Positions 43,725-60,600 of a DNA stretch of 64,000 nt are shown here, one piece after another. The position numbers and the translations under genes are program-made. This DNA is from Clostridia bacterium (GTDB lineage: Bacteria > Bacillota > Clostridia > Christensenellales > QALW01), in NCBI GenBank assembly GCA_045600705.1, contig JAZRYL010000042.1, positions 45,507 to 109,506 on the forward strand. The letters are read 5' to 3'. Under the pieces are notes generated by a model. The model saw nothing but the letters and a program-made list of their open reading frames with translations, was not told the origin of the DNA and did not search any database. The first letter of the stretch is position 1; each line of letters starts with the position of its first letter.

Positions 43725-45047
43725 ATGGGACTTATTAAAGCAGCAATCGGCGCAGTTGGCGGCAACCTTGCAGATCAGTGGAAAGAGTTCTTTTCCTGCG
43801 ATGCATTACCCGCAGACGTGCTTGTAAGACAGGGAAATAAACAAATCGGAAAACGTTCGTCAAACACAAAGGGAAGCGACAACGTTATCAGCGACGGTTC
43901 GGGAATTGCAGTTGCCGACGGTCAGTGTATGATTATCGTTGAGCAGGGCAAGGTAGTAGAAGTCTGCGCTGAACCCGGTGTGTTCACGTACAGAACAAAT
44001 CTTGCACCCAGTCTGTTTACCGGAAGCCTCGGCGAAAGCATTAAGGCAACATTTAAGGATATCGGCGCTCGTTTCACCATGGGCGGCGCTACCGGTAAGG
44101 ATCAGCGAGTTTACTATTTCAACACAAAGGAAATCGTTGACAATAAATTCGGCACGGCAAACCCCATTCCGTTCCGTGTAGTTGACAACAAAATCGGTCT
44201 TGACATCGACGTTTCTCTGAGAATGAACGGTGTATATTCATACAAGATTGCCGATCCTATTCTTTTCTACACCAACGTTTGCGGAAACGTAGGCGAAGAA
44301 TATACCCGTGAAGAAATCGACAGTCAGCTTAAAACCGAATTCGTAAGTGCTTTGCAGCCTGCATTTGCACGTCTTTCGGATATGGAAATCCGTCCCAATC
44401 AGATAATTGCTCACAACACAGAACTTGAGCAGGCTATGAACGTTTCACTTTCGGATAAGTGGGGCAATCTCCGTGGTTTGAAGGTCGTTTCGGTGGCACT
44501 TGGTTCCGTAACACTTCCCGAAGAAGATCAGCAGCTTATCAAGGACGCTCAGAGAGCCGCTATGTACAAGGATCCCACAATGGCTGCGGCGAACCTTGCA
44601 GGCGCTCAGGCAGATGCTATGCGTACTGCGGCAGGAAACACGGCAGGCGCAATGACCGGCTTTATGGGCATGGGAATGGCTATGAACGCAGGCGGCGGTA
44701 TGGCGAATATTCAAAACCTTTACGCAATGGGCCAGCAGAATCAGGCACAGCAAGCACAGCAAAATCAGTCTGCTCCGGCAGAAAACGGTTGGAAATGTTC
44801 CTGCGGTGCAACGGCTACCGGCAAGTTCTGCACAGAATGCGGAAAAGCAAAACCGGCAGACGGATGGACCTGCACCTGCGGTGCGGTAAACCAAGGCAAA
44901 TTCTGCCCCAACTGCGGCGCAAAGAAGCCTGAGGGCGCACCCTTATACCGTTGCGACAAGTGCGGATGGACTCCGGAAGATCCTCACAATCCCCCGAAAT
45001 TCTGCCCCGAATGCGGCGACGTTTTCGACGATAACGACAAACAGTAA
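43725..45047 (+). CDS. SPFH/band-7 (YdjI-like) domain protein with three C-terminal zinc-ribbon repeats.
   Basis: N-terminus MGLIKAAIGAVGGNLADQWKEF, then an SPFH-like core. The C-terminus has three CxxC...CxxC ribbons: GWKCSCGATATGKFCTECG, GWTCTCGAVNQGKFCPNCG and YRCDKCGW...KFCPECG. Confidence 0.6.
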   Translation: MGLIKAAIGAVGGNLADQWKEFFSCDALPADVLVRQGNKQIGKRSSNTKGSDNVISDGSGIAVADGQCMIIVEQGKVVEVCAEPGVFTYRTNLAPSLFTGSLGESIKATFKDIGARFTMGGATGKDQRVYYFNTKEIVDNKFGTANPIPFRVVDNKIGLDIDVSLRMNGVYSYKIADPILFYTNVCGNVGEEYTREEIDSQLKTEFVSALQPAFARLSDMEIRPNQIIAHNTELEQAMNVSLSDKWGNLRGLKVVSVALGSVTLPEEDQQLIKDAQRAAMYKDPTMAAANLAGAQADAMRTAAGNTAGAMTGFMGMGMAMNAGGGMANIQNLYAMGQQNQAQQAQQNQSAPAENGWKCSCGATATGKFCTECGKAKPADGWTCTCGAVNQGKFCPNCGAKKPEGAPLYRCDKCGWTPEDPHNPPKFCPECGDVFDDNDKQ

Positions 45048-45158
45048 TAAATAAAGAGTTATGGGCTGTTTTGTGAAATGCAAGACAGCCCTTATAATAA
45101 ATGTAGCAATCCGGTTTGAATTTTATAGGGTTGCGACAGATTATAAGGAAGTGATTAT

Positions 45159-46259
45159 ATGCCCGATATGGAACAGTACAAGTGTCCCTCCTGCGGCGGC
45201 GCTCTTGAATTTGACAGTAAGTCGCAAAAACTGAAATGTCCCTATTGCGACGGCGAATTTGATATTGAAGTATTAAATGAAATTTCCGAAGCGGAACAGA
45301 AAATCGGAACGGAAGATAAAATGGACGGCTGGCAGAACAACCAAAGCCAAAATATGTCCAATGAAGAAAATTCTTCCGTAGCCACGTATATTTGTAAGTC
45401 CTGCGGCGGCGAGGTAATAGCAAATGTGAACACGGGTGCGACTACTTGCCCGTTCTGCGGAAACAACGTTGTAATCAACGAAAAGTTTGCGGAAACACTG
45501 CGCCCCGACCTTGTTATTCCGTTCAAACTTGACAAAAAAGCCGCAAAGGAAGCATTTATCAAGCACTTGTCCGGCAAGAAACTTTTGCCGAAGTTTTTCA
45601 GGTCGGAAAACCACGTTGACGAAATCAAAGGCGTGTATGTTCCGTTCTGGCTTTACAATGCGGACGTTGACGGCGCAGTAAAATATAACGCCACGAAAGT
45701 CAGAATGTGGTCAAGCGGCAAGTATGATTACACGGAAACAAAGTATTACGAAATATACCGTGAGGGTGGAGTGGGATTTCAGAATATTCCCGTTGACGCT
45801 TCCACAAAAATGGCGGACGATTTGATGGATTCGCTTGAACCCTTCGACTTGCACGAGGCGGTGGACTTTAATACCGCTTATCTTGCAGGATATCTTGCGG
45901 ATAAATACGATGTTACCGTTGAGGAAAACATTCCACGTATAAACACGAGGGTAAAGTCAAGTACCGAGGACGTTTTCAGAGGCACGGTAACTGAATTGTA
46001 CAATACTCTTTCAGTTAAGGATTCGTATATCGACCTTAAAAACGGAAACGCAAGATATGCACTTCTGCCCGTTTGGATACTTAACACCACGTGGAAAGAT
46101 AAAAAATACGTTTTCGCAATGAACGGTCAAACGGGAAAATTCGTGGGCAATCTGCCTATGGATAAAAAACTTTATTGGAAGTATTGGCTCATATCGTTTT
46201 TGTGCGCCATTCCCATCGGCTTGATTATATCGCTGATTGTTCAGTGGATTTGCAAGTAA
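45159..46259 (+). CDS. YdjG-like zinc-ribbon protein with a C-terminal transmembrane anchor.
   Basis: N-terminal double zinc ribbons (YKCPSCGGALEF...LKCPYCDGEF; YICKSCGGEVI...TTCPFCGNNVV), a central domain of unknown function, and a C-terminal TM (YWLISFLCAIPIGLIISLIVQWI). Confidence 0.55.
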   Translation: MPDMEQYKCPSCGGALEFDSKSQKLKCPYCDGEFDIEVLNEISEAEQKIGTEDKMDGWQNNQSQNMSNEENSSVATYICKSCGGEVIANVNTGATTCPFCGNNVVINEKFAETLRPDLVIPFKLDKKAAKEAFIKHLSGKKLLPKFFRSENHVDEIKGVYVPFWLYNADVDGAVKYNATKVRMWSSGKYDYTETKYYEIYREGGVGFQNIPVDASTKMADDLMDSLEPFDLHEAVDFNTAYLAGYLADKYDVTVEENIPRINTRVKSSTEDVFRGTVTELYNTLSVKDSYIDLKNGNARYALLPVWILNTTWKDKKYVFAMNGQTGKFVGNLPMDKKLYWKYWLISFLCAIPIGLIISLIVQWICK

Positions 46260-46272
46260 GGAGGGCGAAAAA

Positions 46273-47406
46273 ATGAAAAAACTGATTTCTGTATTAGTTG
46301 CATTTGTTATCGCCGTTTCCTGCATAAGCATTTCAGCATTTGCTCTTGACGATTTGGCGCCCGGCACGTTCTTTACTGCCGAGCAGGCGGAAAAAGCCCA
46401 AAAAATAAAAGAAAAGTTCGGGTTTGACGCAATTTTCTTTTGCACCGAAGAAACCGGAAGTTTAAGCGAACTGACGCAAGACTATCTTGCAACCAACGGC
46501 ATTACCGAAAAATATCTTATTCTTTCGACTAATGATGAGTATTATTACTGCAACTGGTCAAAAGACCTTGACGGAATATTCCACAGTGCCGACAGCAGTT
46601 TTCTGTTTGAATCCGTTTGGTATGACGGAAATGGCATCGAACTTTCGCCTCAGGAAGCAGAGGACAATTTCTTTGAACTTGTTCCGAAAACCGTGGAAAA
46701 CAGAATAAACTGTCCGTATAAGTACATAAAGGACCAGGCAGATGTTCTGACAGATGAACAGGAAAAGGAACTTGAAGGAATTCTTGCTTCGTTTAGCGAA
46801 AGCAACAACGCCGATTTTGCGGTAGTGTTTGCCAACGGAATAGATAACGGCGATTATAAAAATGACGACCGTATGGCATTCGCAGACGACTATTATGATT
46901 ACAACGGTTACGCCAAGGACGGCACGTTGCTTCTTGTAAATATCGGCGCACACGGTATTTATTCACGGGGTAACAGTTGGATTTCCACTTCGGGAAAATG
47001 TATTTATTCCGTTGACGACAGCGATATTTCAAGCATAGGCTCGAAACTTACGCCGATGCTTATCAGCGGTGAATATTTTGAGGCGGTAAAAAGTTATTCG
47101 TCTATGACGGAAAAATACCTTAAACAAGATAAAAATGAGGGAATTTCTTTGGTTGCTATTATAACTATTGTTTTAAGCATTATTGTTGCATTTATTTACA
47201 CGGGAAAACTTAAAAAACAACTTAAATCCGTAAAGGATGCTACCGACGCAAACGATTATATCGTTGACGGCTCGCTGAATATTTCCCGTGCTTACGACCA
47301 TTTCCTTTATGCACACGTTACGAAAACGGCAAGGGAAAGCAGTAGCAGCAGCGGCGGTTCGCATACGTCGTCTTCCGGCTCGTCCCATGGCGGCGGCGGA
47401 TTTTAG
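46273..47406 (+). CDS. TPM-domain (YgcG/YdjH-like) membrane protein with a Gly/Ser-rich tail.
   Basis: Signal/TM MKKLISVLVAFVIAVSCISISAFA. TPM-like core (IKDQADVLTDEQEKELEGIL...ADFAVVFANG...DGTLLLVNIGAHGIYSRGNS), a TM helix, and a C-terminal SSSSSGGSHTSSSGSSHGGGGF typical of the family. The start is taken at 46273 rather than at the listed 46237. Confidence 0.6.
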   Translation: MKKLISVLVAFVIAVSCISISAFALDDLAPGTFFTAEQAEKAQKIKEKFGFDAIFFCTEETGSLSELTQDYLATNGITEKYLILSTNDEYYYCNWSKDLDGIFHSADSSFLFESVWYDGNGIELSPQEAEDNFFELVPKTVENRINCPYKYIKDQADVLTDEQEKELEGILASFSESNNADFAVVFANGIDNGDYKNDDRMAFADDYYDYNGYAKDGTLLLVNIGAHGIYSRGNSWISTSGKCIYSVDDSDISSIGSKLTPMLISGEYFEAVKSYSSMTEKYLKQDKNEGISLVAIITIVLSIIVAFIYTGKLKKQLKSVKDATDANDYIVDGSLNISRAYDHFLYAHVTKTARESSSSSGGSHTSSSGSSHGGGGF

Positions 47407-47791: not shown

Positions 47792-48682
47792 ATGGCCGCA
47801 AAAACAAAAGGCGTAAAGATTTTAACGTCTGTTATTGGCATTATACTGTGCATTGTTTTTAGCGTTTCCCTGATCGTAAATATTGTAATAATAGTAAAGG
47901 GCTTTTCTGATCCGAATAACCCGCCGTCTGTTTTCGGCGTTGTTCCGATGGTCGTACAATCGGGTTCTATGAGTATATGGAATGATGCGGATGACCATTC
48001 GGCAGGCTATGTAGTGCATAAGGTTTTTCCGGATGAAATAGCCGATATGGACCGAGATAGCGTTACTTCGCTTAAAAAGGGCGACGTTATTTGGTCGTAT
48101 GAGGAGAAGTATAAAGTCAGAAATGAAGTTGTTGCCGTAATTGACAGCGGTGATGACGGCGTTTGGGTAAATACTGTTCGCCCTGCCGACGATCATATAG
48201 AAGTCGGTGATATGATTTTCTCCAAGAAAATTGATGCAAAGGACTTAAAAGTCGGGGATGTCATATCATATCTTGAAGACAGTGTTGTGGTAACGCACCG
48301 TATTATAAGAATTGATACTGCGGAAGACGGCACAATTGAATTCGTTACCAAGGGCGATGCAAACTTGTCTAAGGACGAAAAACCGGTTCCTCAGTCCAAG
48401 GTAATAGGAATTTACACGCTGAGAATAGCAAAAATAGGCGATCTTGCAATGTTTATGCAAAAACCGTTGGGAATGCTCTTGTTTGTGGGTGTTCCTCTGT
48501 TGGCATTCATTGTCTATGATATAATAAGAAGACAGTCTGCCGTTAGCAAAGCAGGAAGCAAGGATGCTGAAAAAGAAGAACTGGAGAGAAAGGCAGCGGA
48601 AATGCAGGCGGAGATTGAACGCTTACGCAAACTTTCCGAGAAAAAAGAAGAGAACGAAGAAAAACCTTCGGATACTCAATAA
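47792..48682 (+). CDS. sipW: SipW-type (archaeal/ER-type, S26B) signal peptidase I with a long C-terminal extension, copy 1.
   Basis: N-terminal TM, then VVQSGSMS, which corresponds to the SipW catalytic motif SGSMEP. C-terminal TM, then a charged coiled-coil tail. Confidence 0.55.
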   Translation: MAAKTKGVKILTSVIGIILCIVFSVSLIVNIVIIVKGFSDPNNPPSVFGVVPMVVQSGSMSIWNDADDHSAGYVVHKVFPDEIADMDRDSVTSLKKGDVIWSYEEKYKVRNEVVAVIDSGDDGVWVNTVRPADDHIEVGDMIFSKKIDAKDLKVGDVISYLEDSVVVTHRIIRIDTAEDGTIEFVTKGDANLSKDEKPVPQSKVIGIYTLRIAKIGDLAMFMQKPLGMLLFVGVPLLAFIVYDIIRRQSAVSKAGSKDAEKEELERKAAEMQAEIERLRKLSEKKEENEEKPSDTQ

Positions 48683-48861
48683 AATTATTATCAGTTTTTG
48701 ATGTTTTGCCGTGCCAATGCCACTGGCACGTTGTAAATACATACGGGAGTAATGTTTGCTCCCGGAAATCGGAGATTATAAGAGAGATAACATACTGCCA
48801 CGATGAATAAATATCTCAATTGTAAACTCATAGCTCTACTTTATATAGGAGGAAATCAAAA

Positions 48862-49560
48862 ATGAAAAAGAATTGGACAATGAGAGTTGCCGCTTTGATG
48901 GCTATTCTCACTCTTGCTACCAGTTGCTTTGTTGGCGGTACTTTCGCTAAATACGTAAGAACAGGCGCTGGCGATGATAATGCACGTGTTGCTAAATTCG
49001 GTGTTGGTATTACAGGAACCGGCGATTTGTTCAACACCACTTATGCAAAACATGACACCAGCTTCGGTATTGCAGCAGATTCAGTTGTTACATCACCCAC
49101 AGGAGATGGCAAAAAACTTGTTGCTCCCGGTACTGATGGCAATCTTGCCGCATTTGAACTTACCGGTATTCCCGAAGTTGCAGTTCGTGTAAGCTACACA
49201 GTAAACGATTTTACACTTACCAACTGGGCTGTCGGAACTGAATTCTATTGCCCGCTTATCATCAAGGTTGGCACCACAGAATTCTGCGGTCTTGACTATA
49301 CTGATGCTGATGATTTCATAGCAGATGTTAAAGTTGCAATCGAAGACACAACCTATGATTACGAAGCAAACACCGATTTGAGCGCACAGACTGCTGACGA
49401 TCTTGCTATTGCATGGAAATGGGTATTTGATGATTCTAAGGCTGATTATCCTGCAGGTCAGACCGACGTAAAGGATACTTACCTCGGAGACCGTGCTGCT
49501 GCAGGCGCTGCAGCTACAATCGCTCTTGAAGTTACCTGCGCAGTAACTCAGATCGACTAA
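48862..49560 (+). CDS. TasA/CalY (camelysin-like) family secreted protein with a SipW-cognate signal peptide.
   Basis: The signal peptide ends in FVGGTFAKYVRTG (compare TasA GGGTWAAFND; TIGR04088-type). Core motif LVAPGTDGNLAAFELTG matches the TasA box PG-x5-(F/V)-x-(F/L)-x-N-x-G. Confidence 0.5.
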   Translation: MKKNWTMRVAALMAILTLATSCFVGGTFAKYVRTGAGDDNARVAKFGVGITGTGDLFNTTYAKHDTSFGIAADSVVTSPTGDGKKLVAPGTDGNLAAFELTGIPEVAVRVSYTVNDFTLTNWAVGTEFYCPLIIKVGTTEFCGLDYTDADDFIADVKVAIEDTTYDYEANTDLSAQTADDLAIAWKWVFDDSKADYPAGQTDVKDTYLGDRAAAGAAATIALEVTCAVTQID

Positions 49561-49708
49561 TTGCAAAAATAATTACTTAATGTTTTTTTGCCTGCCATTG
49601 TGGCAGTGGCAGGCAAAAAATATTTCGTTTTTTGAGAAAAGTTATGTATTCTCAAAGGCAAATATATAGCTTTTCTGAAAAAATATTGCGAAAGGAAAAA
49701 ACAGCATA

Positions 49709-50497
49709 ATGAGCTTTTTAAGGAAGCAAAAAGTCTGGATTCTTCCTACGATTATCGTTCTTTTCATACTTGAAATACTTACATTTCCATTAGTTGTTTC
49801 GCTGACCTATGCAGGAAAAAGCGAAAGTCCCGAACATATTATTACTTATAATACCGGGAAACTGATATGGGATGACAATACTAAAGTGCGTGCAGACGGA
49901 ACAGGAGAATTAACATTATTTGATACCTTGTATCAGAATGTAAACAGTGACAACGGCGAGAAGGTTTTGGCTCCCGGTACGGAAGGGGACAACATCGTTC
50001 GACTTCATAACAAGTGCGGAAACGAAGTAACCTATACCGCTATTATGTACACTATACGTTCTGTGGGTAATTTGCCGGTTGTTGCAGTTATGGATGGCGA
50101 CGGCAATGATACTGAGGACTTTTCTTTACCAAACGGCATCGAAAAGGACAGTGTTGTCAAGGCTTTGAGCGGTAAACTTTCGGACGGACAGATTGCGGAT
50201 TTTAATATAGATTGGCATTGGACCTTCGAACAGGGAACCGAGCAGGATATCATTGATACGGCATTCGGAGATAAGGCCGCACAAGATGAAGCCGACAATG
50301 TTGTTATGGGCATATATATCGTGGTGGAAGATCAGGGATCGAAAGTGCGTCCTAATCCGCCTAAAACCGGTGATGACACCGTTATTTTCGGCTACATTAC
50401 TTTGTGTGCTATCAGTTTTATTGCAATAATTCTGCTTCTTATAACGGATAGGAAAAAGCGCAAGGAAGATGAAAGTTGCATTGAGCAAGATACTTAA
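49709..50497 (+). CDS. TasA-like protein carrying a C-terminal sortase-type sorting signal.
   Basis: TasA box VLAPGTEGDNIVRLHNKCGNEV. The C-terminus has PPKTGDD, then a hydrophobic helix (TVIFGYITLCAISFIAIILLLI), then RKKRKEDE, which is the architecture of an LPXTG-like cell-wall sorting signal. Confidence 0.5.
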   Translation: MSFLRKQKVWILPTIIVLFILEILTFPLVVSLTYAGKSESPEHIITYNTGKLIWDDNTKVRADGTGELTLFDTLYQNVNSDNGEKVLAPGTEGDNIVRLHNKCGNEVTYTAIMYTIRSVGNLPVVAVMDGDGNDTEDFSLPNGIEKDSVVKALSGKLSDGQIADFNIDWHWTFEQGTEQDIIDTAFGDKAAQDEADNVVMGIYIVVEDQGSKVRPNPPKTGDDTVIFGYITLCAISFIAIILLLITDRKKRKEDESCIEQDT

Positions 50498-50999
50498 ATG
50501 GATCGGTAGGATATTTACATTTCTTCTCATTTTAATTTTAGGCTTTAACGTTTACATTATTGTTATGCGTAGCTGTTTTAATGTTAAGATGCCTACGGTT
50601 TTCGGGTTTTCAAATGCCATAGTTTTGACGGGCAGTATGGAACCGACGATTCATGTAAATGATATGATAATTGTGAAATCACAGGACGTTTACAACGAAG
50701 GCGATATAGTAACTTATATTCCCGAAAACAACGGCACGCCTGTGACACACAGAATAATAGAAAAAAGAGATAATATTTTTATAACGCAAGGCGATGCAAA
50801 TAATACTGCAGATCCGGGAATTAAAGCGGAACAGGTTGTCGGACGTGTGGTGTTGACAATACCGTTTGTCGGAAGCATTGTTGCATTGCTTACTACACCG
50901 TTGGGACTGATGATTTTTATAATAATCGGTATTGCGGTGTTCGGCTTGGTACGGTTGATTGAAACCGTAAAAAATAAAAAGCAAACTCCGGATGAATAA
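50469..50999 (+). CDS. sipW: SipW-type signal peptidase I, copy 2.
   Basis: N-terminal TM, the exact SipW motif LTGSMEPTI, a C-terminal TM, and a size of about 176 aa typical of SipW. It overlaps the upstream gene by 29 nt. Confidence 0.65.
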   Translation: MKVALSKILKWIGRIFTFLLILILGFNVYIIVMRSCFNVKMPTVFGFSNAIVLTGSMEPTIHVNDMIIVKSQDVYNEGDIVTYIPENNGTPVTHRIIEKRDNIFITQGDANNTADPGIKAEQVVGRVVLTIPFVGSIVALLTTPLGLMIFIIIGIAVFGLVRLIETVKNKKQTPDE

Positions 51000-51019
51000 T
51001 AAGGAAAGAGAGGGACATC

Positions 51020-51670
51020 ATGTCGGAAAAGAGCGAAAAAAGTTTTTCTAAAATTCCGTTTAGGGTATACATTGTATACCTGTTAGTTGCGTCCTTCCTT
51101 TTTACAGGCGTTGCTTTTTCTAAATACGTTACATCCGGCTTCATAAACGACAGAGCACGTGTTGCAAGCATCGGAGAGGTAATTATTACCGAAACGGGCG
51201 ACTTTTCATCGTCATCCGTGGACGGTGATACCACCGAGAATTCTTATATTGTGATACCCGGAGTCGATTTAACAAAAGACGTTCGGCTTCGCTTTGACGG
51301 GTCGGAAATGGCATGCTACGTTTTCTTGCAGGTTGACCCGAACGGCTTTACCACAACGGATAATTATCACTTTGCACAGGGAAAAATTTCGTGGGCGATT
51401 GATGACTCATGGACGTTCCTTAAAGAAGACGGCGGCGTTTACGTTTATTATCATATAGTTGCCGCAAACGCTGCAATCGAAAATAAAGCTATACTTGAAG
51501 ATTCAAAAGTTACTGTAAATGAACAACTGATAAGGTCGGAACTTAACAGTCTTCCGGGTCTTCTTAACATAACCTTCAAAGCTACAGCCGCCCAGTATGA
51601 CGGTTTTGGAAATTTTGATACCGAAGAAGAACATGCTCTTGCTGCATGGAATTCGGTTAGTGCACATTGA
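51020..51670 (+). CDS. TasA/CalY-family secreted protein with a SipW-cognate signal peptide.
   Basis: Signal ...FTGVAFSKYVTSG. Core IVIPGVDLTKDVRLRFDG closely matches TasA KPGDKLTKDFQFENNG. Confidence 0.55.
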   Translation: MSEKSEKSFSKIPFRVYIVYLLVASFLFTGVAFSKYVTSGFINDRARVASIGEVIITETGDFSSSSVDGDTTENSYIVIPGVDLTKDVRLRFDGSEMACYVFLQVDPNGFTTTDNYHFAQGKISWAIDDSWTFLKEDGGVYVYYHIVAANAAIENKAILEDSKVTVNEQLIRSELNSLPGLLNITFKATAAQYDGFGNFDTEEEHALAAWNSVSAH

Positions 51671-51703
51671 TCTGTTATTAAGCATAAAGGAGGATAGAGA
51701 GCT

Positions 51704-54700
51704 GTGCATATATTCAATAAAATTAAAAAATCAAAAATAAGTATCAGAGTAATCTCAGCGGTTCTCTGCCTTTCTTATATGATATCTGTTTTTCAGCTGT
51801 TGCCAATGCTGACTAAAGCATTTGACGATGTTGACATTTATGTTGTCCGTGACGGCGAGAAGATAGATGAACTTATCATAAACTCCAACGAACATGTAAA
51901 TATCTCGGCAAAAACATCGGGATTTGTTACAACACGCTATCAGTGGCAGATTTTGGCTGACCGCCAAAATGAACTGTGGGTAGACGTTTACGATATGAGA
52001 AGCGAAGAAGCAGAAGTATCGTATGCACTTATTTCGCCTGTTATGGACGAATCAAACAGCGCATATATTCGATGTGTAGCCATACTTCCGGATAAGACGG
52101 TTTGCAGCAGCCCCGTATGCGTTACAGTACACGAACAGGCAAAATCAAACGTTCAGGGTAGCCTCGGCGCTCCTGTTTTAAGCGCTGCCCGTGCAAAAGC
52201 ACCGGTTTTATTAGGCGAACCGGCACCGGAATATGCGTATATTACCATAAATTATCTTAGTGCTGAATCCCCCGACAAAAAAGTTTTTACACCTTATGTT
52301 GCAAAAATTGCATACGATTCTACGTATTCTCAGGTCGTACCCAGCCCCACACAAATCGGATTTGCACCGTATTATTCCGGCGTGTCAGGAGATTCCGATC
52401 CCGAAAATGCCGAATACAGCGCACAGGCTATCAGTGTAAACTATAATCCGGGCGACGGTGACATCGTTTACAACGTTTATTACAAAGCCATTGACGTTCC
52501 CTATGCCGTAAAATATTTCTTCCAGAATATCAACGATGACGGATATACGCCAAATGCTTCCATATCCTTCAACGGAATGGCTAAAACCGGAACTATTGTT
52601 TCGGATGAAACTCTTAACCAACCCGTATTTGATTATTTCGGCGTTGACGAGAACGAAGATTTCGGATTTTCACCTCTTTACCATTATCCCGAATCGGTTG
52701 CTGCCGACGGTTCGACAGTATTCGAATGTTACTACGACAGAAACTATTATTTGATAAAATTTGACCTTGACGGCGGCTACGGCGTTGAACCTATTTATGC
52801 CCGTTTTGGCTCGTCATTCGTAATTACTCCCCCAAACAAGGCAGGATTTGTCTTCAAAGGATGGGATATCATCGACTCATACACGTATGACGTGTATATT
52901 GACGTTGACGGCACAGAAGTTAAAGTTGACACGGTTGTTCTTAATGCGGAACAGTACGTGGAAAAGGGAAGTCCGTCTGCGTTTGTAGGTTATTATACGT
53001 CGGGCGGAACTGAATACCCGGATGCAGTTTATAAGTTCGTTAAGGCAAGCGGCGACGGCATACCCGATAAACCCGAAGATACTTCAAAAATTCCGCTTGT
53101 ATATAACGGAACTGTTGAAGCTAAGGCCGCAAACTACAAGGCAATTTGGGAAACAACAACTACTACGTATACAATCGTTTATTGGGCTGAAAATGCCGAC
53201 GATAGCGGTTACAGTTATTGGGGCAATAAATTGGTTTCGACACAGTCAGCCACTGTTCTGACAGATTTCGATGCAATCGTTGCCGCAAACTCGGCCGCAA
53301 GCGCTTCGCTTACTGACGCAAAGTACTTTACCTATAATAGTGATAAGACAAAATTTGTGAACGGCGACGGCGTTTTGGTAGAAGGTGACGGTTCTACTAT
53401 CATAAACGTTTATTACAGCAGAAATACCTACGACCTTCTGTTCTATGATAGCGTGACCAAGTGTTACGTTCCGGAACATGTACATTCCGATTCGTGTTAT
53501 GCGTATGACTGCACATCTACACACGTTCACACCGCAGATTGCTGTAAATACGGCTTGAATGAAAATCCGCATACAGAGCTCTGTTGCGGACTTGAAAATC
53601 ACGCACACGGTGAAGAATGTCTTGTGAATTGCACTATTCCGGAGCATACTCACACTGTTGCGTGCTGTACGCTTTCGGAGCATACTCATACTGCTGCGTG
53701 CTGTAATAAAGAAGTGCACACTCATACCGCTGCGTGCATAACCTGTTCGCACGTACATACGGCGGCTTGCTATGGCGTCACCATTGCCGGATCTGCAACA
53801 GTGCCGAACGGTAACGGTTGGGATAATAGGAACGATAATAAAGACTTTATGAATCAGTTGGGTCTTACGTCCGGATATGTCTATTATTATGATGACCGTA
53901 AGGTGAATAACGCAAAGGATCACTACATTCTGTATCTCGACGGAATGTACTATAATCTGACCCAGGCAGAGTTTAATAATATAAAAGACGGAGATGAGGT
54001 TGCGAGCGGTGATTTTACCGGTACCGGTACTCTCCCTATGAAGGATTACTTTTACAAGTATAAAGCTAAGATTGTTACCGCCAAGTGCACCCATCCCACT
54101 CACGATGATTCCTGCTATAGTTGCGGCAAAACGGAGCATACGCACAGCGACGGAACCTGTACGTATAATTGCGGACAAATCGTTCATACTCACGGCGACG
54201 GAAATTGTAATCACGGCTGCGGAATGGTGGAGCATACTCATTCTGCGGCATGCAGATACAGATGTGCAAAGATAGAACATACTCATTCAAATTCGTGTTG
54301 TACCGTGCCCGCACATACGCATCAGCGTTCGTGCTATACGCTGTCCGGTACATTCAGGTCAAATAACCGAGATAGAGAAATTTCACTCGGAAATGCAACG
54401 ACGCCTACATGGACAGACAAAAGATCGGTGACAGTAAAAGGTGTCACTCTTTGGTATGATAACCAAGCGAACACTAACCAAAAGTATTTATACCTTAAGA
54501 TAGGTGAGTCCTATTACAGACTTAATTATAGCGGTACAACGGGAATCACTTACAGTAATATAAACAATATTACCGCTCTTAACTTAAACAGAACCTGTGC
54601 CTATGATGTAGAGCACACACACGGTGACGGAAACTGCACATATAATTGCATTGGCTATGAACACACACATACCGACAGCTGTTATGGATGCGGTAAAAAA

Positions 54701-57700
54701 GAACATATACACGGCGACGGAAACTGCAATTTTGCTGCATGTACAGATCCTACGCATCATGTTCACACCAGCGATTGTTTGGTATGCGGTTTTTTATCCG
54801 AGCACGTTCATGATGAAAGTTGCCCACGTGTTCTTGAATGCACGCAGACAGAACATTCGCACACTGACGGTACCTGCCGTACAACGGCATCCGGAAGCCA
54901 GGTAGACAGCGCTACACGTTATCTTGTATACAAAATAACTGCCAAATATAATGCGGATATTCACGCTCATTGGCCGATAAACGGATATAACGGAACAACG
55001 TATTCTTCCGCAAACCTTTACCGTTGGGACCCGGACAGAAGCAACAAGTTAGGATTAGATTCAGTTCTTGTTTATATGGACCGTATGCCGGGTATGGAAA
55101 GCGAAACCAATAAATCGCTTACGTTGCTCGCACAAAAGTCAAGCGGTAAATCAAATATCACCATGCACTATTGCGTACAGACAATTCCCGGTGATTCAAC
55201 GGCACAATACGTGAACTATTTAGGCGAACCGGCTGCAATAAACGCAGGTAAAGGCGGTGCAAGCGGTTATCAGTTTGTAACCGATTACCGTCGTGCCGGC
55301 GCATATTATACCGGTATCACCATGGACGTTGACTTCATCGACCTTGAAGGCTTTGAAAAATACCGTCTTTATACAAACAGCGGTGTAGATATTGCATACG
55401 CAAATAACACGACTACACGTAACGGTACGGACGACTATTTCTACTATCTCAGAAAACAGTACAATCTTTCGTTCTATAACTACAACGCCGATTGGGGTAC
55501 AACCAACAAGATATATTACGAACAGAATATGAATCCGTTCAATCCCGGTGAACCGCCGTATCCTTCAAGCCTTGAAGCCGGTGCATACGAGTTCGAAGCG
55601 TGGTACACTACGCCCGAATGTTATCCGGGAACCGAGTTCGATTGGAATGCGGTAAACAAGATGCCGGCGAAAGACGTTAAGTTATACGCAAAATGGGTTC
55701 CCGTTAAACACACGGTTAGATTCTTTGAAACCTACGACAAGATGAAAGAGTATGAACGCAGTGTTGCAAACGGTACTCCCGACGAAAGTCTTGTTTACGT
55801 CAAAGAATCCATGCCTACTGTTCCGTATAGCATGAAAGTCGATCACGGATCGTTTGTCGGTTCATTGCCTAACCCGGACAAATTGCTTGTTCAAAATTCC
55901 GGCGGATCAACCAGTGAGTATGACTTTGCAGGATGGTTTGCCGTTGAAAACGAGCAGAAAAAAGCGTTCACTCCTCTTGATATGCCTATTACGAAGGATA
56001 TGAACGTTTACGCCGATTGGGGTACGCATACAGCACAGCCCTATGCGGTTTACTACATCGTCAATGATTACGAAACAAATTCCATGTGGCTTAACATGCT
56101 CGGTGAACCTACGGAAGGCCAGAAGTGGAAGTCAAAATCGGTTACCATCGGAGGCCAACATCGCAATTATCTGTGTGTTGAGGAAAACGGTGTGTACCGT
56201 TGGTACCGTGAAGTTGCCGATAAAACAAGAGGATATGCTTACCAGGGTACTACACGAACCTTCCCTGCAAAAGCGGGCGAGTCGTTACATCAGTTATACA
56301 CAGATTACGATATAGACTTTAACCAAGGATATTATCCGACACCTGCTTCACACTCAATAACCATGGTGTATGAAGAAAACAGCTTGGAACCGATTAACAA
56401 CGTATTCGCTTTCAAGTATGTTCACGTCGATAATGTAAACTATACGGTTCGTTATCTTGATGCTGCAAACCCGGATCCCGGTAATCCTCTCCACGAGGAA
56501 AAGGTTGTTAGCACAGGAAATGCTATTGTAACGGAAAGATTCGTTCCTATACCGAACTACGTTCCGGATGCTTTCTACAAACAGTGCATTCTTGCGGTTA
56601 CTGAAGACCCGGATCATCCCGGCGTGTTCGTTTCTTCGCAGGATAACGTAATTACATTCTATTATTCAAAGAATACCACATCAGCTCGATATACTGTTCA
56701 CTTCCTTCTGCAAAAAGCAGACAGCGAACCGCTGAATGATAGTGATTTCAATGTATCCTTTGATACGAATTTGTATAGCGAATCCTACGGTACATACTCA
56801 TTCTCAAGTAAATTTGAGGAGTCCGGTTCTCGTATTGACGGTGTTGCCGATAAGGATACTCAGATACAAATAAGTCCTATCGACTTCGCAGGATTTAATC
56901 TTGTAGAGAATAAAGCAAAATATTCAAACGGTATGGGCGCCGCACAAAATGCTGCTTATTCCGGCGGCTCGTATAGCATTACGCCTGTACTTGACGGAAC
57001 CGATCTTTTCATTTTCTATGAAAGAGAATCGTATCCGTACAAGGTCTACTACTTAAAGTATGAAACACCTGTTTCAACAAGTGACCTTGCAACCTATATT
57101 ACCAAGGATGAAGCAAGAGGCGTTTTGGCCGACACAAAAGGAATGAGCGGAGATTTAATTGCACTTTACGGCAATACCTATTCCGAAAATGCGATTGATA
57201 TTGACGGATACGTTTGCGTATCGGCTCATACTATTGAAAAAGCAATTACACCGGTAGTTGAAAGCAACTATATTGTATTCTTCTACGTTCCCGAACAGTT
57301 TACTGTTCAGTACGTTGTCGCCGGCGGAAAAGGCGGAGAATTGTCCGCAACTAACGAAACCGGTTCTGCAACGTCCATAATGGGATCTGTTGCAATGGCA
57401 CTTCCCGGATACAAATTTGCGGGTTGGTTTATCGACCCGGAATGTACAATTCCGGCAATGTATGACCCGTCCACAAATCCGGACGGAAAAGGTACTACAT
57501 ATACAAGCACCTTAAAGGAAACAGAAGCCGTGGGCGAAAACGGTATTTACGTTATGCCCGACGTTGCAAAGATGATTCCTAACGGACAAGAGGGCGCAAA
57601 CAACAACATCTTCTATGCTAAATTTGATCCGCTTGTGGGCGAATTGACCGTTATTCGAAATAATTCGGATAATGAGGGCAACGGTGATCAGGTATTCGTT

Positions 57701-57958
57701 TACGAAATCAGAAATAAGACGACCGGTGCGGTATATTATGTTACTATTACAGGCAACGGATCGGCTACCGTTAAGGGTATTCCTCTCGGCGAATATACTG
57801 TGACACAGCAAAATGATTGGTCACATAGATTTGCTGACGCTTCAAAAGACGTTACAGTATCTCACTTGACAGGTGACAGCGTTACTTTTGAGGATGCCGC
57901 TGTAAAAAATAAGTGGCTGAACGGTAACGGCCACGTGGCTGTTAACAAAAAGGGGTGA
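51704..57958 (+). CDS. Giant secreted protein (2084 aa) with about 20 tandem His/Cys-rich 'EHTH...C' repeats and a C-terminal Cna-B/SpaA-like (prealbumin-fold) domain; a putative fibre-associated or metal-binding surface protein.
   Basis: Signal peptide ending LPMLTKAFDD (SipW-cognate-like). Residues around 590-1065 carry repeats CTIPEHTHTVACC, LSEHTHTAACC, KTEHTHSDGTC, MVEHTHSAAC, GYEHTHTDSC and so on. C-terminus GELTVIRNN...VKGIPLGEYTVTQ typical of the Cna B / SpaA isopeptide domain. Confidence 0.6.
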   Translation: MHIFNKIKKSKISIRVISAVLCLSYMISVFQLLPMLTKAFDDVDIYVVRDGEKIDELIINSNEHVNISAKTSGFVTTRYQWQILADRQNELWVDVYDMRSEEAEVSYALISPVMDESNSAYIRCVAILPDKTVCSSPVCVTVHEQAKSNVQGSLGAPVLSAARAKAPVLLGEPAPEYAYITINYLSAESPDKKVFTPYVAKIAYDSTYSQVVPSPTQIGFAPYYSGVSGDSDPENAEYSAQAISVNYNPGDGDIVYNVYYKAIDVPYAVKYFFQNINDDGYTPNASISFNGMAKTGTIVSDETLNQPVFDYFGVDENEDFGFSPLYHYPESVAADGSTVFECYYDRNYYLIKFDLDGGYGVEPIYARFGSSFVITPPNKAGFVFKGWDIIDSYTYDVYIDVDGTEVKVDTVVLNAEQYVEKGSPSAFVGYYTSGGTEYPDAVYKFVKASGDGIPDKPEDTSKIPLVYNGTVEAKAANYKAIWETTTTTYTIVYWAENADDSGYSYWGNKLVSTQSATVLTDFDAIVAANSAASASLTDAKYFTYNSDKTKFVNGDGVLVEGDGSTIINVYYSRNTYDLLFYDSVTKCYVPEHVHSDSCYAYDCTSTHVHTADCCKYGLNENPHTELCCGLENHAHGEECLVNCTIPEHTHTVACCTLSEHTHTAACCNKEVHTHTAACITCSHVHTAACYGVTIAGSATVPNGNGWDNRNDNKDFMNQLGLTSGYVYYYDDRKVNNAKDHYILYLDGMYYNLTQAEFNNIKDGDEVASGDFTGTGTLPMKDYFYKYKAKIVTAKCTHPTHDDSCYSCGKTEHTHSDGTCTYNCGQIVHTHGDGNCNHGCGMVEHTHSAACRYRCAKIEHTHSNSCCTVPAHTHQRSCYTLSGTFRSNNRDREISLGNATTPTWTDKRSVTVKGVTLWYDNQANTNQKYLYLKIGESYYRLNYSGTTGITYSNINNITALNLNRTCAYDVEHTHGDGNCTYNCIGYEHTHTDSCYGCGKKEHIHGDGNCNFAACTDPTHHVHTSDCLVCGFLSEHVHDESCPRVLECTQTEHSHTDGTCRTTASGSQVDSATRYLVYKITAKYNADIHAHWPINGYNGTTYSSANLYRWDPDRSNKLGLDSVLVYMDRMPGMESETNKSLTLLAQKSSGKSNITMHYCVQTIPGDSTAQYVNYLGEPAAINAGKGGASGYQFVTDYRRAGAYYTGITMDVDFIDLEGFEKYRLYTNSGVDIAYANNTTTRNGTDDYFYYLRKQYNLSFYNYNADWGTTNKIYYEQNMNPFNPGEPPYPSSLEAGAYEFEAWYTTPECYPGTEFDWNAVNKMPAKDVKLYAKWVPVKHTVRFFETYDKMKEYERSVANGTPDESLVYVKESMPTVPYSMKVDHGSFVGSLPNPDKLLVQNSGGSTSEYDFAGWFAVENEQKKAFTPLDMPITKDMNVYADWGTHTAQPYAVYYIVNDYETNSMWLNMLGEPTEGQKWKSKSVTIGGQHRNYLCVEENGVYRWYREVADKTRGYAYQGTTRTFPAKAGESLHQLYTDYDIDFNQGYYPTPASHSITMVYEENSLEPINNVFAFKYVHVDNVNYTVRYLDAANPDPGNPLHEEKVVSTGNAIVTERFVPIPNYVPDAFYKQCILAVTEDPDHPGVFVSSQDNVITFYYSKNTTSARYTVHFLLQKADSEPLNDSDFNVSFDTNLYSESYGTYSFSSKFEESGSRIDGVADKDTQIQISPIDFAGFNLVENKAKYSNGMGAAQNAAYSGGSYSITPVLDGTDLFIFYERESYPYKVYYLKYETPVSTSDLATYITKDEARGVLADTKGMSGDLIALYGNTYSENAIDIDGYVCVSAHTIEKAITPVVESNYIVFFYVPEQFTVQYVVAGGKGGELSATNETGSATSIMGSVAMALPGYKFAGWFIDPECTIPAMYDPSTNPDGKGTTYTSTLKETEAVGENGIYVMPDVAKMIPNGQEGANNNIFYAKFDPLVGELTVIRNNSDNEGNGDQVFVYEIRNKTTGAVYYVTITGNGSATVKGIPLGEYTVTQQNDWSHRFADASKDVTVSHLTGDSVTFEDAAVKNKWLNGNGHVAVNKKG

Positions 57959-58509
57959 TGAGCGTGAAGAAGAAAAAAAAGCTTGTTCTTGCATTGCTGT
58001 TGATTTTGATTCTTGCGCTTATTGCTGCCGGTGTAACAATAGCCTATATGCTGCGTAGCTCCGGCAAAATAAACAACATTTTTGAAAAAGCAGTTGTTTC
58101 ATGTGCTGTTGTAGAGGATTTTGACTCTGAAACCGGTGTTAAGAGCAGTGTTAAAGTAAGAAACACCGGAAATATCAACGGTTTTATAAGAGTTCGTCTT
58201 GTATCTTATTGGGTAGACGGTGAAGGCAATATTGTCGGAAAACCGTCTGAAATGCCAAGCGTTTCGTATGATTCCGAAAAATGGATCAAAGGAGCAAACG
58301 ACACGTATTATTGTAAAGAACCGGTAATGGTCGGGGAAGAAACTCCGGAATTTTTAGATGCGAATATTCAATTGAAATATCCGCCTGATGAAGAATATTA
58401 CCAGGTGCTTGAAGTAATTCCCGAGGCGATACAGTCCGCACCTGCAAAGGCAGTTAAAGAGGCGTGGGGAATGTATGTCAAAGACGGCAAGATATCTAAC
58501 GAGCCTTGA
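57955..58509 (+). CDS. Small TasA/camelysin-like secreted protein with a SipW-cognate signal.
   Basis: Its start overlaps the stop of the giant gene (ATGA). Signal ...AAGVTIAYMLRSSG. Core VKVRNTGNINGFIRVRL resembles the TasA FQFENNGSLAIKEV box. Confidence 0.5.
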   Translation: MMSVKKKKKLVLALLLILILALIAAGVTIAYMLRSSGKINNIFEKAVVSCAVVEDFDSETGVKSSVKVRNTGNINGFIRVRLVSYWVDGEGNIVGKPSEMPSVSYDSEKWIKGANDTYYCKEPVMVGEETPEFLDANIQLKYPPDEEYYQVLEVIPEAIQSAPAKAVKEAWGMYVKDGKISNEP

Positions 58510-58529: not shown

Positions 58530-58563
58530 AAAACGGCAGAGAATTTTCTCTGTCGTTTTTTTG
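58530..58563 (+). terminator. Rho-independent terminator ending the SipW/TasA-like operon.
   Basis: acggcagagaattttctctgtcg followed by tttttttg. Confidence 0.7.
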
Positions 58564-58603
58564 ATAAATCCCTGCATTAAAAATAACACCGAAATAATTT
58601 TTA

Positions 58604-58632
58604 TTGAAAATATAACGGTTATCGTGTATAAT
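58604..58632 (+). promoter_or_regulatory. Sigma-A-type promoter for the LuxR-family gene.
   Basis: TTGAAA (58604-58609), a 17-nt spacer, and TATAAT (58627-58632), about 90 nt upstream of the ATG at 58726. Confidence 0.5.
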
Positions 58633-58725
58633 ATATGTCGTAATGCTAACCGCTTGGCGGTGCGTTTCAGCGGCAAAACGGAATACGGCATTGTTCGTAT
58701 TTGCGTAAAAAAAACGGAGCGAAAA

Positions 58726-60600
58726 ATGAAAAAACGGTTATATAATAAAGCCATACAGATATTTGTGCTTGTTTTGGGCTTTTCACTGATTTTAATGAAT
58801 ATTCCTGCTTTTGCAGTGTCGGATGTGCCTATGGCTACAACGGTAAAAGAATTCACCGATGCACTTGTGAACGCAAAAGACGGTGACACGGTGCTTGTGG
58901 GGGATATCACGTTCAAGCCGATGCCTATGGGCATGATATCCGTGCAGAAGAATGTTAAAATCAAAAGCGGCAAGGACACAAATGCGATTTTTACCAATGC
59001 GACATTTGCGTTTAACGGTTCGGTTGCGGATTCGGCGCCGCTCAGTGTTCAGTTTGAAAATATTGATTTCCGAGGCGATTGCTTCGGCAAGGAAATAAAC
59101 CCTGCCTCTCCACCCGAAATCAGTTCTAAAATTCCGAGCATTATGAAAACCATGTGTGCGGGAATTTTCAAAATGAACGTGAACGCTTCGTACAGTAACT
59201 GTACCTTTGAGGGCTACCATTACGGCTACGGCGGAGTTTTCAGCGCAATTTATTCTTCCGATGACAACAAAAATATGCTTAATTTGTCCCTTGACGGATG
59301 CACTTTCAAAAACAATGCGGCAAAATACGGCGGAAGCATATATTTGTCCGGCTACGGGCATAACATCAATTTTGATGCTCGCCATTGCATTTTTGAAGAT
59401 AACTGTGCCACCACCGGCGGAGCAATTTGGGCGGAGGATGCAAATGTGCATTTGCTTGATTGCTCGCTTACGGGAAACCGTTACATAGAGGAAGACGTTA
59501 CCGAACCTAACGGCGGAGCGCTGGCACTTTATAATTGCGGAGTGGACCTTGACGGATGCCTGATTGCCAATAACACGTCCGGCGGCGACGGGGCGGGAGT
59601 GTACTGTTCCATTTCGCCGTTCAAAACGCTGATTATGGAAAACTGTACCGTAATCGGCAATGAAGCGTCTGCGGATAAAGGTATTTCGGTGGCTCTTGAA
59701 AAAACGAAACTTGACACTTCTGCGGCGGCACACATTTACTTCTCGTCGCTTTTCGGAGAACAGAATTTTTCCGACAATGTGGAACTTTTCGGATGCCTTA
59801 TCGTCGAAAAAAATATTGATGAAAAGGAACCGACCGAAGAAAATAACTACTGTCTTGAACTGACCGAGGAAACCGCACGGGAAAAAGGACTTGTTCCCGA
59901 TTTAGCGGAAAATGCCGAGCATATAAGCGTTCCGCAGGGAGAATACACGGTTCCGCAGGAAGCGATAGACAAGGTTGCCGGCGGAAAGTTCTCCCAAAGT
60001 ATGGGCATATTGCAGGTGGGCGATAATTACCGCAAGGAAGAAACGGTTCAAGTCAAAATTACTCCCGAACGCACGGAAAATGTGACAGTTGCATACGGCG
60101 AAGAACTGACCTTGCCCGAACCGGAAAGAAAAGGCTTTTCGTTTGAAAAGTGGGAAAGTCCGCTTGATGCCGATAAAACGGTGTTTATGGGTGGCGAACT
60201 TCCCGAAACACCTATTAAGGCACAGTGGCACTTTGATTTTTTCGACAAACTGTATGTTGTTTGGATACTGATATTTGCATTTGCTCTTGCAATCGCCTTT
60301 TTGATTTATCAGCGCAGAAGAAAATCGACGGAGGCTGTTCCTCTTGCCGAAAACGGCGACAATCTGCCTCTTTCGGACGATTGGATAAATAAGGTCTGCG
60401 AAAGTCCGGAAATCACCGCACTTATTTCAAAGCGCGAACTTGAAGTGTTACATAAACTTCTTGAGGGAAAAAGCCGAAAACAAATAGCAGAGGAACTTTT
60501 TATTACGGAAGCGACTATTCGCAAACATTCCACAAATATTTATTCAAAACTTGAAGTGCATAACCGAACCGAACTCGTTTATAAATTAACAAAGCACTGA
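58726..60600 (+). CDS. Membrane-anchored LuxR/GerE-family transcriptional regulator with an extracytoplasmic parallel beta-helix (pectin-lyase-fold) domain.
   Basis: The start is taken at MKKRLYNK (RBS ggag), not at the listed 58561. Signal/TM, then PbH1-like repeats (NNAAKYGGSIYL; CATTGGAIWAED; NNTSGGDGAGVYC), a TM (LYVVWILIFAFALAIAFLIY), and a C-terminal HTH_LuxR (SKRELEVLHKLLEGKSRKQIAEELFITEATIRKHSTNIYSKL). Confidence 0.65.
   Translation: MKKRLYNKAIQIFVLVLGFSLILMNIPAFAVSDVPMATTVKEFTDALVNAKDGDTVLVGDITFKPMPMGMISVQKNVKIKSGKDTNAIFTNATFAFNGSVADSAPLSVQFENIDFRGDCFGKEINPASPPEISSKIPSIMKTMCAGIFKMNVNASYSNCTFEGYHYGYGGVFSAIYSSDDNKNMLNLSLDGCTFKNNAAKYGGSIYLSGYGHNINFDARHCIFEDNCATTGGAIWAEDANVHLLDCSLTGNRYIEEDVTEPNGGALALYNCGVDLDGCLIANNTSGGDGAGVYCSISPFKTLIMENCTVIGNEASADKGISVALEKTKLDTSAAAHIYFSSLFGEQNFSDNVELFGCLIVEKNIDEKEPTEENNYCLELTEETAREKGLVPDLAENAEHISVPQGEYTVPQEAIDKVAGGKFSQSMGILQVGDNYRKEETVQVKITPERTENVTVAYGEELTLPEPERKGFSFEKWESPLDADKTVFMGGELPETPIKAQWHFDFFDKLYVVWILIFAFALAIAFLIYQRRRKSTEAVPLAENGDNLPLSDDWINKVCESPEITALISKRELEVLHKLLEGKSRKQIAEELFITEATIRKHSTNIYSKLEVHNRTELVYKLTKH

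Follow-up and report, generated by a model that had tools for sequence, protein, structure and literature searches.

In Clostridium perfringens, the sipW-bsaA-bsaB-bsaC operon gives rise to a fibre of BsaA outside the cell and also encodes one large accessory protein that is secreted (bioRxiv 10.1101/2024.11.04.621531). Here we describe a locus from a Clostridia bacterium, an anaerobe of the gut (GenBank assembly GCA_045600705.1, contig JAZRYL010000042.1, positions 45,507 to 109,506). This stretch of 64,000 nucleotides (nt) is referred to as the window, and all coordinates below are positions within it. As a locus, though not in the repeat that it encodes, it resembles the bsa operon and the Bacillus tapA-sipW-tasA operon in combining SipW, small TasA/BsaA-like proteins and a large accessory protein. 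The bsa accessory is a 70-kDa VWA protein without Cys/His arrays, whereas the window encodes a protein of 2084 amino acids (aa) and two SipW paralogues. Also unlike in the bsa operon, the small proteins of the window show only sub-threshold similarity to the BsaA family. The position of the giant protein is analogous to that of the bsa large accessory protein. It carries arrays of a short Cys/His unit with the pattern Cys-x4-His-x-His-x3-Cys, which we call the CHHC knuckle and which is the subject of this report.

Fibrillar adhesins are the second system to which the locus can be compared, since their stalks are built of repeats such as Cna_B, Ig-like and G5-E domains (PMC9210967). The CHHC knuckles share with these repeats the tandem arrangement, the occurrence in giant surface proteins with adhesin domains and the variable copy number. 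As in fibrillar adhesins, relatives of the window protein combine the units with pAdhesive_15, Cna_B, VWA and LPXTG. However, known stalk domains are beta-sandwiches of 70–100 aa that rely on a hydrophobic core, isopeptide bonds or Ca2+, whereas the units described here are Cys/His modules of 12 residues. Another difference is that the relatives with the largest arrays place them distal to the adhesive domain and not between the adhesive domain and the wall.

The gene for the giant protein is an open reading frame (ORF) at 51704..57958 on the + strand. Its product possesses a signal-like N-terminus, as do 135 of the 153 relatives retrieved, which agrees with the extracellular repeat proposed in the first-pass annotation; an LPXTG anchor is absent. 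The whole protein belongs to the Listeria-Bacteroides repeat proteins (PF09479/TIGR02543). Flg_new (PF09479) scored 40 bits against a cutoff of 27, with four matching stretches of which the best spans aa 1866-1925, and TIGR02543 scored 30.2 bits against a cutoff of 20.95. All of these matches lie outside aa 587-1058, the segment that holds 40 of the 51 Cys and 42 of the 63 His of the entire protein.

Within this segment (nt 53462-54877) we counted 20 units, 18 canonical and two degenerate, which confirms an earlier count of about 20 His/Cys repeats and the coordinates given with it. In a canonical unit the HxH is followed by a Cys after 3-4 residues and preceded by a Cys at 1-5 residues; the degenerate ones are C614..H623..C627 and C795-x-H-x2-H-x3-C804. 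The regular expression C-x(1-5)-HxH-x(3-4)-C gave 23 overlapping matches in the protein. By comparison, 2000 shuffles of the whole protein contained 0.01 matches on average, and shuffles confined to the Cys/His-rich segment contained 0.22 on average and four at most. The repeat is thus strongly non-random.

The first-pass annotation had described about 480 residues as built of such units. Instead, the units form three arrays (8+6+6), split by two beta-rich domains and covering 281 aa in total. Array 1 (53462..53773, aa 587-690) comprises eight units, seven canonical and one degenerate, with 16 Cys and 15 His in 104 aa. Array 2 (54086..54334, aa 795-877) has five canonical units and one degenerate unit, with 12 Cys and 13 His in 83 aa, and the six units of array 3 (54596..54877, aa 965-1058) are all canonical, with 12 Cys and 13 His in 94 aa. 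The unit length is 12 residues and the linkers between units are 0-4 residues long. Beta-rich domains 1 (53774..54085, aa 691-794) and 2 (54335..54595, aa 878-964), which like the arrays are encoded on the + strand, are about 100 and 87 aa long, non-repeat and homologous to each other, with the common motifs G-Y-V-Y and Y-x-Y-L-x-x-G-x-x-Y-Y. Domain 1, whose homology is seen in alignments A1 and A2, contains G-Y-V-Y and reads Y-I-L-Y-L-D-G-M-Y-Y at the second motif, and domain 2 is predicted to form an antiparallel beta-meander. Judging from the aromatic-rich hairpins and a weak, non-significant resemblance to lectin blades, it is a reasonable guess that the beta domain binds a ligand.

A word-indexed homology search with the 478-aa segment returned four fragments, each with 2-4 units, a domain of about 90 aa and another 2-3 units, and a further search of this kind returned 12 proteins. 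Profile A1, representing the [units]-[domain]-[units] module, was searched exhaustively against 1.84 billion representatives of clusters defined at 50% identity. This resulted in 486 matches at E ≤ 1e-3, 186 at E ≤ 1e-10 and 13 at E ≤ 1e-30. The family was therefore revealed by the exhaustive profile search and not by the word-indexed one: the units belong to a large uncatalogued repeat family of at least 486 clusters at 50% identity. Most profile matches span the whole module, which makes beta domain 1 homologous to the single domain of most relatives, and the matched proteins are mostly secreted and 1000-3200 aa long. Each of the 153 retrieved relatives has two units or more (median 7, maximum 40), and only a few of them end in an LPXTG tail.

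A scan of species-representative genomes identified 36 loci with relatives. Nearly all of them come from gut or rumen metagenome-assembled genomes (MAGs) of Oscillospiraceae, Ruminococcaceae, Acutalibacteraceae, Lachnospiraceae and unclassified Clostridia, and the cultured isolates among them are two, Clostridium sp. SGI.024 and Bilifractor porci. Two loci (L016 and L023) stem from MAGs labelled Akkermansia and Bacteroidaceae, outside Clostridia, on contigs of 9.4 and 4.2 kb, so short that mis-binning and horizontal transfer are equally likely. The relatives with the largest arrays (24-40 units; P0014, P0027, P0031, P0113 and P0118) have pure N-terminal arrays with a two-unit super-repeat, CGxxEHxHxxxCYDxxGxLxCxxxEHxHDxxCY, joined to pAdhesive_15, CHAP, VWA and Cna_B domains and an LPXTG anchor. 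As these pure arrays show, the unit is also employed without the beta domain that accompanies it in the window.

We derived a consensus from 1290 units, which reads C-G-x-x-E-H-T-H-[TS]-x-x-C-Y. C(-5) is found in 72% of the units, E(-1) in 45%, the T between the two His in 49%, C(+6) in 85% and Y(+7) in 38%. This count was conditioned on HxH. In a recount conditioned on Cys-x10-Cys only, His occupied both +5 and +7 in 798 of 889 pairs (90%). The family arrays contain Cys and His in a ratio of 2043:2029 (1.007), each accounting for about 13.5% of the residues, compared with 0.9% Cys and 1.6% His outside the arrays. The composition of the arrays is acidic (D+E 16.6%, K+R 4.2%) and hydrophobic residues are scarce (F 0.5%, W 0.1%, M 0.6%, L 4%). 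Among 123 profile-aligned modules, the Cys/His columns flanking the beta domain are 96-100% conserved, whereas the other 130 columns average 33%. Four conserved ligand positions together with a 1:1 ratio of Cys to His are the features of a generic Cys2His2 site.

The ligands could be grouped in two ways, either as C-H-H-C or as C-x3-C-x4-H-x-H, with both Cys upstream of the His pair. Among the 235 arrays that contain three or more units, exactly one Cys lies within 12 residues ahead of the first HxH in 83%, and exactly one follows the last HxH, also in 83%. The array ends thus carry one Cys per side, not two before and none after, and the C-x3-C-x4-H-x-H grouping was rejected on these grounds. 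In the window, arrays 1, 2 and 3 have 16, 12 and 12 Cys, which divide without remainder into 8, 6 and 6 C..HxH..C units that start and end at the borders of the beta domains. Finally, an optional unit after the beta domain is a CHHC unit in 67 modules, has non-ligand residues or gaps at its four positions in about 25, and is partial or misaligned in the rest. Because of the array ends, the Cys partition in the window and an optional unit that is mostly whole or absent, we favour the C-H-H-C grouping. Across the 235 arrays, the Cys count is exactly twice the unit count in 52%.

Next, we compared the units with catalogued domains. Pfam and NCBIfam, searched with the whole protein, with the arrays and beta domains singly, with four array-rich relatives and with 43 modules, gave no significant match in the units; library matches fall outside them and are limited to Flg_new, adhesin, CHAP, VWA, Cna_B and LPXTG. 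When arrays and beta domains were scanned singly at E ≤ 10, we obtained a sub-threshold zf-CCHC (PF00098) match on array 2 (E 0.1, 13.2 bits, below the cutoff of 20.8) and chance matches. In the Pfam scan of the 43 family members the best E-value was 0.05, and zf-CCHC appeared in one of the 43 at E 0.083. A sequence search of the PDB with two profiles returned nothing below E 0.16, the best match being a retroviral nucleocapsid knuckle, and a fold search of the PDB revealed no significant structural neighbour. Hence, neither sequence nor fold similarity places the units with any zinc module solved in the PDB. In the literature, searches for the motif strings, for CHHC with zinc and extracellular, for Cys/His adhesin stalks and for Gram-positive Cys2His2 surface proteins retrieved no description of the repeat. 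The earlier impression that it is no named domain is supported by all of these libraries. The weak best matches to the units (E 0.16 for the nucleocapsid knuckle, E 0.1 for zf-CCHC) are all zinc modules, in keeping with the zinc site proposed below.

The zf-CCHC knuckle (C-x2-C-x4-H-x4-C) is, like our unit, a tiny Cys/His module of 12-14 residues without a hydrophobic core, and several units of the window read C-x2-C-G-K-x-E-H, similar to the C-x2-C-G-K-x-G-H of nucleocapsid knuckles. However, zf-CCHC uses three Cys and one His, whereas the units follow C-x4-H-x-H-x3-C, in which the two His are framed by a single Cys to the left and right of HxH. Moreover, known knuckles are intracellular and bind nucleic acids, whereas the units are extracellular, bacterial and present in up to 40 copies per array. 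Membership in zf-CCHC was rejected, as the score is below the gathering cutoff and the ligand pattern differs. With classical C2H2 arrays, the units share the Cys2His2 stoichiometry, the tandem arrangement of many units and the predicted position of the last two ligands on a short helical turn. They differ from the C-x2-4-C-x12-H-x3-5-H fingers of about 28 residues in being 12 residues long, in their C-H-H-C order, in having no conserved hydrophobic core and in being carried by secreted bacterial surface proteins. We also rejected this class, since there was no Pfam match (protein at E ≤ 1, arrays at E ≤ 10) and the spacing is absent from the sequence. Pneumococcal Pht (HxxHxH) repeats were rejected because a PhtD match in the PDB was at chance level (E 2.3, on a beta domain) and no Pfam match was found, and c-type cytochrome haem attachment because the three arrays contain no CxxCH.

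AlphaFold2 was run with alignments of two depths. With six sequences, the beta domain reached a predicted local distance difference test (pLDDT) score of 84-91 and the units stayed below 50. With 43 diverse modules (A2), unit block means were 75-86: the last three units of array 2 had 75-86 and the first three of array 3 about 84. The five A2 models agree with each other (mean pLDDT 69.9-72.4). DSSP assigned the first His to a beta-bridge with a residue 5-7 positions upstream (Y17/H24, C31/H36 and Y145/H152), and a three-residue helical turn to the segment ending at the last Cys (N28-C30, R40-C42 and D156-C158). This predicted local shape, which recurs among the units, resembles a compressed knuckle-plus-helix zinc module. 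A regular solenoid, which had been suggested as something AlphaFold might reveal, did not appear; the models show small knuckles without long secondary-structure elements, and the predicted template modelling (pTM) score is 0.51.

In the model that we propose, every unit binds a single metal ion through the two Cys and two His of its own. The ion is most probably tetrahedral Zn(II), by which Cys2His2 sites are most commonly occupied. In the acidic arrays, poor in hydrophobic residues, the metal would stand in for a hydrophobic core. On binding it, a flexible chain open to proteases would become a row of small, rigid beads, which would keep the beta domains and the distal adhesin-type domains of the giant protein apart and display them. 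We read the units as a metal module because their ligands are nearly invariant, Cys and His occur 1:1, a hydrophobic core is lacking and an acidic residue precedes the first His. Such a residue could act as second-shell partner of a Zn site. On this basis, the units probably bind metal of some kind, while the more specific claim that one structural Zn(II) per C-H-H-C unit stiffens the chain has, in our view, about an even chance of being right. The transition-metal coordination suggested in the first-pass annotation is thus backed by the four-ligand conservation pattern; that metal is bound, and which metal, we infer. The widest version of the proposal is put forward tentatively. It would make the CHHC knuckle a new metal-stapled fold and the first extracellular bacterial poly-'zinc-finger' family, with 20-40 ions per molecule, replacing Ig-like stalk domains in giant surface proteins of gut Clostridia and tying the stiffness, protease resistance or adhesion of the SipW/BsaA-type fibre apparatus to gut metal.

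Several points weigh against a structural zinc site of this kind. Known zinc fingers seldom place an i/i+2 His pair on one structural Zn, and the sulfide-rich, free-Zn-poor gut lumen may not favour about 20 Zn sites in each molecule. In the relatives with the largest arrays, these are found at the distal N-terminal end, not beside the wall anchor, a position that suits a role in binding no less than one as a stalk. In about half of the arrays, the Cys number is off by one or more from two per unit. As to the models, the units remained below a pLDDT of 50 with the six-sequence alignment, the pTM of the A2 model is low enough that the arrangement between units is not defined by it, and the AlphaFold2 models carry no ions.

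The Cys could instead form disulfides, stapling loops of 12 residues that display HxH, with the His pairs binding metal between loops or molecules (a 'zinc zipper') or sensing pH. The C-x10-C spacing with a central HxH would suit a closed loop, and Zn-dependent self-association is known in staphylococcal G5-E surface repeats. Disulfide-forming enzymes are encoded by some clostridia (PMC12453122). However, the Cys count is odd in 31% of the arrays. Cys is largely kept out of the exported proteins of Firmicutes, and those of anaerobic Gram-positives show no even-Cys bias and no disulfide signature (PMC2823432). The 1:1 ratio and the four near-invariant positions fit a single four-ligand site more simply, and the scanned operon genes include no thiol-disulfide oxidoreductase. 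Disulfide loops are the main alternative to the metal site, but because of the odd Cys counts, the anaerobic Firmicutes hosts and the two invariant His that disulfides leave unexplained, we consider this explanation unlikely.

A similarly low probability applies to the idea that metal capture is the primary function and any structural effect secondary. The arrays would then be an extracellular sponge or reservoir with 20-40 sites for Zn, Ni, Co or Cu, serving acquisition when the host restricts metal, or detoxification. Cys/His-rich storage proteins for Ni and Zn exist, and the very high site density, the copy number of 2-40 units and the exposed distal position of the arrays in some relatives would be in keeping with such a role. 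The conserved operon, however, has SipW and BsaA/TasA-like neighbours and encodes no metal transporter, metallochaperone or metal-responsive regulator. In addition, the units are integrated with a conserved beta domain, and the conservation of the two units flanking it, at 96-100%, is typical of structural sites. Cys2His2 Zn sites are also usually too tight for metal exchange.

That the arrays bind no metal at all, and are a flexible low-complexity linker or a substrate for Cys modification such as thioether crosslinks, seems very improbable. The low AlphaFold2 confidence with the shallow alignment and the missing structural neighbour in the PDB speak for this reading, but linkers do not hold four positions at 96-100% over 123 diverged modules, nor a 1:1 ratio of Cys to His, and no radical-SAM or other modifying enzyme is encoded in the conserved operon. 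A redox-active Cu or Fe chain acting as extracellular electron conduit is the least probable reading, for which only the ligand chemistry (CuA, blue copper and Rieske sites also mix Cys and His) and the close regular spacing of many sites speak, whereas the spacing is unlike that of CuA, blue copper or Rieske sites, CxxCH and Rieske patterns are absent, the scanned neighbours include no redox partners or cofactor-assembly genes, and no Pfam match to cupredoxin or Fe-S families was found. Taken together, the CHHC knuckle is a real, widely conserved repeat, best classed with small Cys/His metal modules, in an unusual extracellular, bacterial and long-array setting.

We next considered the DNA that encodes the repeat. 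It had been described as correspondingly repetitive, but this could not be confirmed: Tandem Repeats Finder reported no array over it, and its direct-repeat copies are 25-48 nt long with 60-83% identity, the longest exact direct repeat being 14 nt. For these three reasons, the DNA is a poor substrate for slippage or frequent recombination, and a slippage-prone DNA repeat was rejected as a description of it. The predicted expansion and contraction therefore holds over evolutionary time, given the 2-40 units of relatives and an extra module in one orthologue, and fails as a property of the window DNA. This orthologue, from an Acutalibacteraceae MAG (locus L001), is 55% identical across the full length of the giant protein. 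It has four arrays (8, 2, 7 and 6 canonical units) and three beta domains, compared with three arrays (7, 5 and 6 canonical units) and two domains in the window protein, and thus one additional array-plus-domain module. A metagenome scan for close relatives, in which copy number could be followed at strain level, found none, so that the comparison is with the 55%-identical L001 only.

An ORF of 346 aa runs antisense to the repeat (53246..54286, − strand), in exact antisense codon register with the giant gene. It spans sense codons 515-861, and its edges are codons 515 and 862, which read as stops on the other strand. Sense TTA, CTA and TCA codons are the sole source of stops in this register. 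None occurs for about 347 codons, the only long gap of this kind in the giant gene, where the codon usage of the gene would predict about 6.5. The antisense ORF has no Pfam match, and in L001 the register is broken into several shorter ORFs. Since the L001 orthologue does not keep it intact, the stop-free gap probably reflects chance together with selection of the longest ORF. We therefore agree with the first reading of this ORF as an artefact and reject it as a real gene.

The giant gene is the sixth of seven genes of an operon on the + strand (47792-58509), whose products are, in order, SipW, proteins of 232 and 262 aa, another SipW, a protein of 216 aa, the giant protein and one of 184 aa. 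The first gene (47792..48682) encodes a signal peptidase I of the SipW (archaeal) type, which has a long extension at its N-terminus, scores 70.1 bits with TIGR02228 (cutoff 51.85) and is 65% identical to its L001 counterpart. It is followed by a small secreted protein of 232 aa (48862..49560) that is 52% identical to its L001 counterpart, weakly related to the 216-aa paralogue and without a Pfam or NCBIfam match. Its N-terminal 'GGTFAKY' stretch can be read as a TasA/BsaA-like signal. The 262-aa protein (49709..50497), 58% identical to the one in L001, ends in PPKTGD, a hydrophobic stretch and RKKRK. This C-terminus resembles a sortase signal, with TIGR01167 only at E 0.07, below its cutoff, and the protein could be the wall anchor of a putative fibre. 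The second SipW-type signal peptidase I (50469..50999) scored 88.6 bits with TIGR02228 and also matched Peptidase_S26 and Peptidase_S24. With both TIGR02228 scores above the cutoff of 51.85 and the peptidases beside substrate genes, the locus shows this feature of a SipW-dependent matrix/fibre operon (TasA/BsaA type).

Directly upstream of the giant gene lies the gene for the small secreted 216-aa protein (51020..51670), for which tblastn found relatives in related loci: in at least 15 of the 36, a 216-aa-like gene immediately precedes the giant gene. Directly downstream, the gene for the BsaA-family-like 184-aa protein (57955..58509) starts within the giant gene and overlaps its stop by 4 nt. 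TIGR04090 matched this protein at E 1.2e-9 with 38.3 bits, below the cutoff of 60, and the other small proteins have no family match. In tblastn searches, the giant gene was followed by a 184-aa-like gene in at least 16 of the 36 loci, and the core order SipW, 216-aa-like, giant and 184-aa-like in at least 14, which are most of the loci with enough flanking DNA. The gene order of the full operon is kept in L001 (2255-13685) and more loosely in L005 (4035-14247). The neighbours that were scanned include neither a metal transporter nor a redox partner, and neither a thiol-disulfide oxidoreductase nor an enzyme that modifies peptides.

Other genes of the window were also noted. Next to the operon, the product of 58561-60600 (+), 679 aa in length, combines beta-helix/PMP-like repeats with a weak Flg_new-like stretch, a putative membrane span and a C-terminal LuxR/GerE DNA-binding domain. 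This protein may be a membrane-tethered regulator; its gene was not found adjoining the related loci. Upstream of the operon, at 43725-47406 (+), are three adjacent genes for an SPFH/Band-7 protein with a zinc-ribbon tail, a multi-zinc-ribbon protein and a TPM-domain protein. A second giant secreted protein of 1996 aa is encoded at 26649-32639 (−); it contains 58 Cys and 46 His and no CHHC unit.

Curated models of the unit and of the [units]-[beta domain]-[units] module would allow annotation of hundreds of protein regions that are now blank in metagenomic data. If the proposed zinc knuckle is correct, the repertoire of zinc fingers would gain a new ligand spacing and, in all probability, a new mini-fold, and a 12-residue, core-less block that can be stacked in tandem would be of interest to protein design. 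Provided that the units bind metal, the family would make extracellular use of Cys2His2 metal sites in a phylum that normally keeps Cys out of the proteins it exports. For the abundant and mostly uncultured gut commensals that carry the family, the proposal would then tie the mechanics of giant surface proteins to a metal availability that is manipulated by the host.

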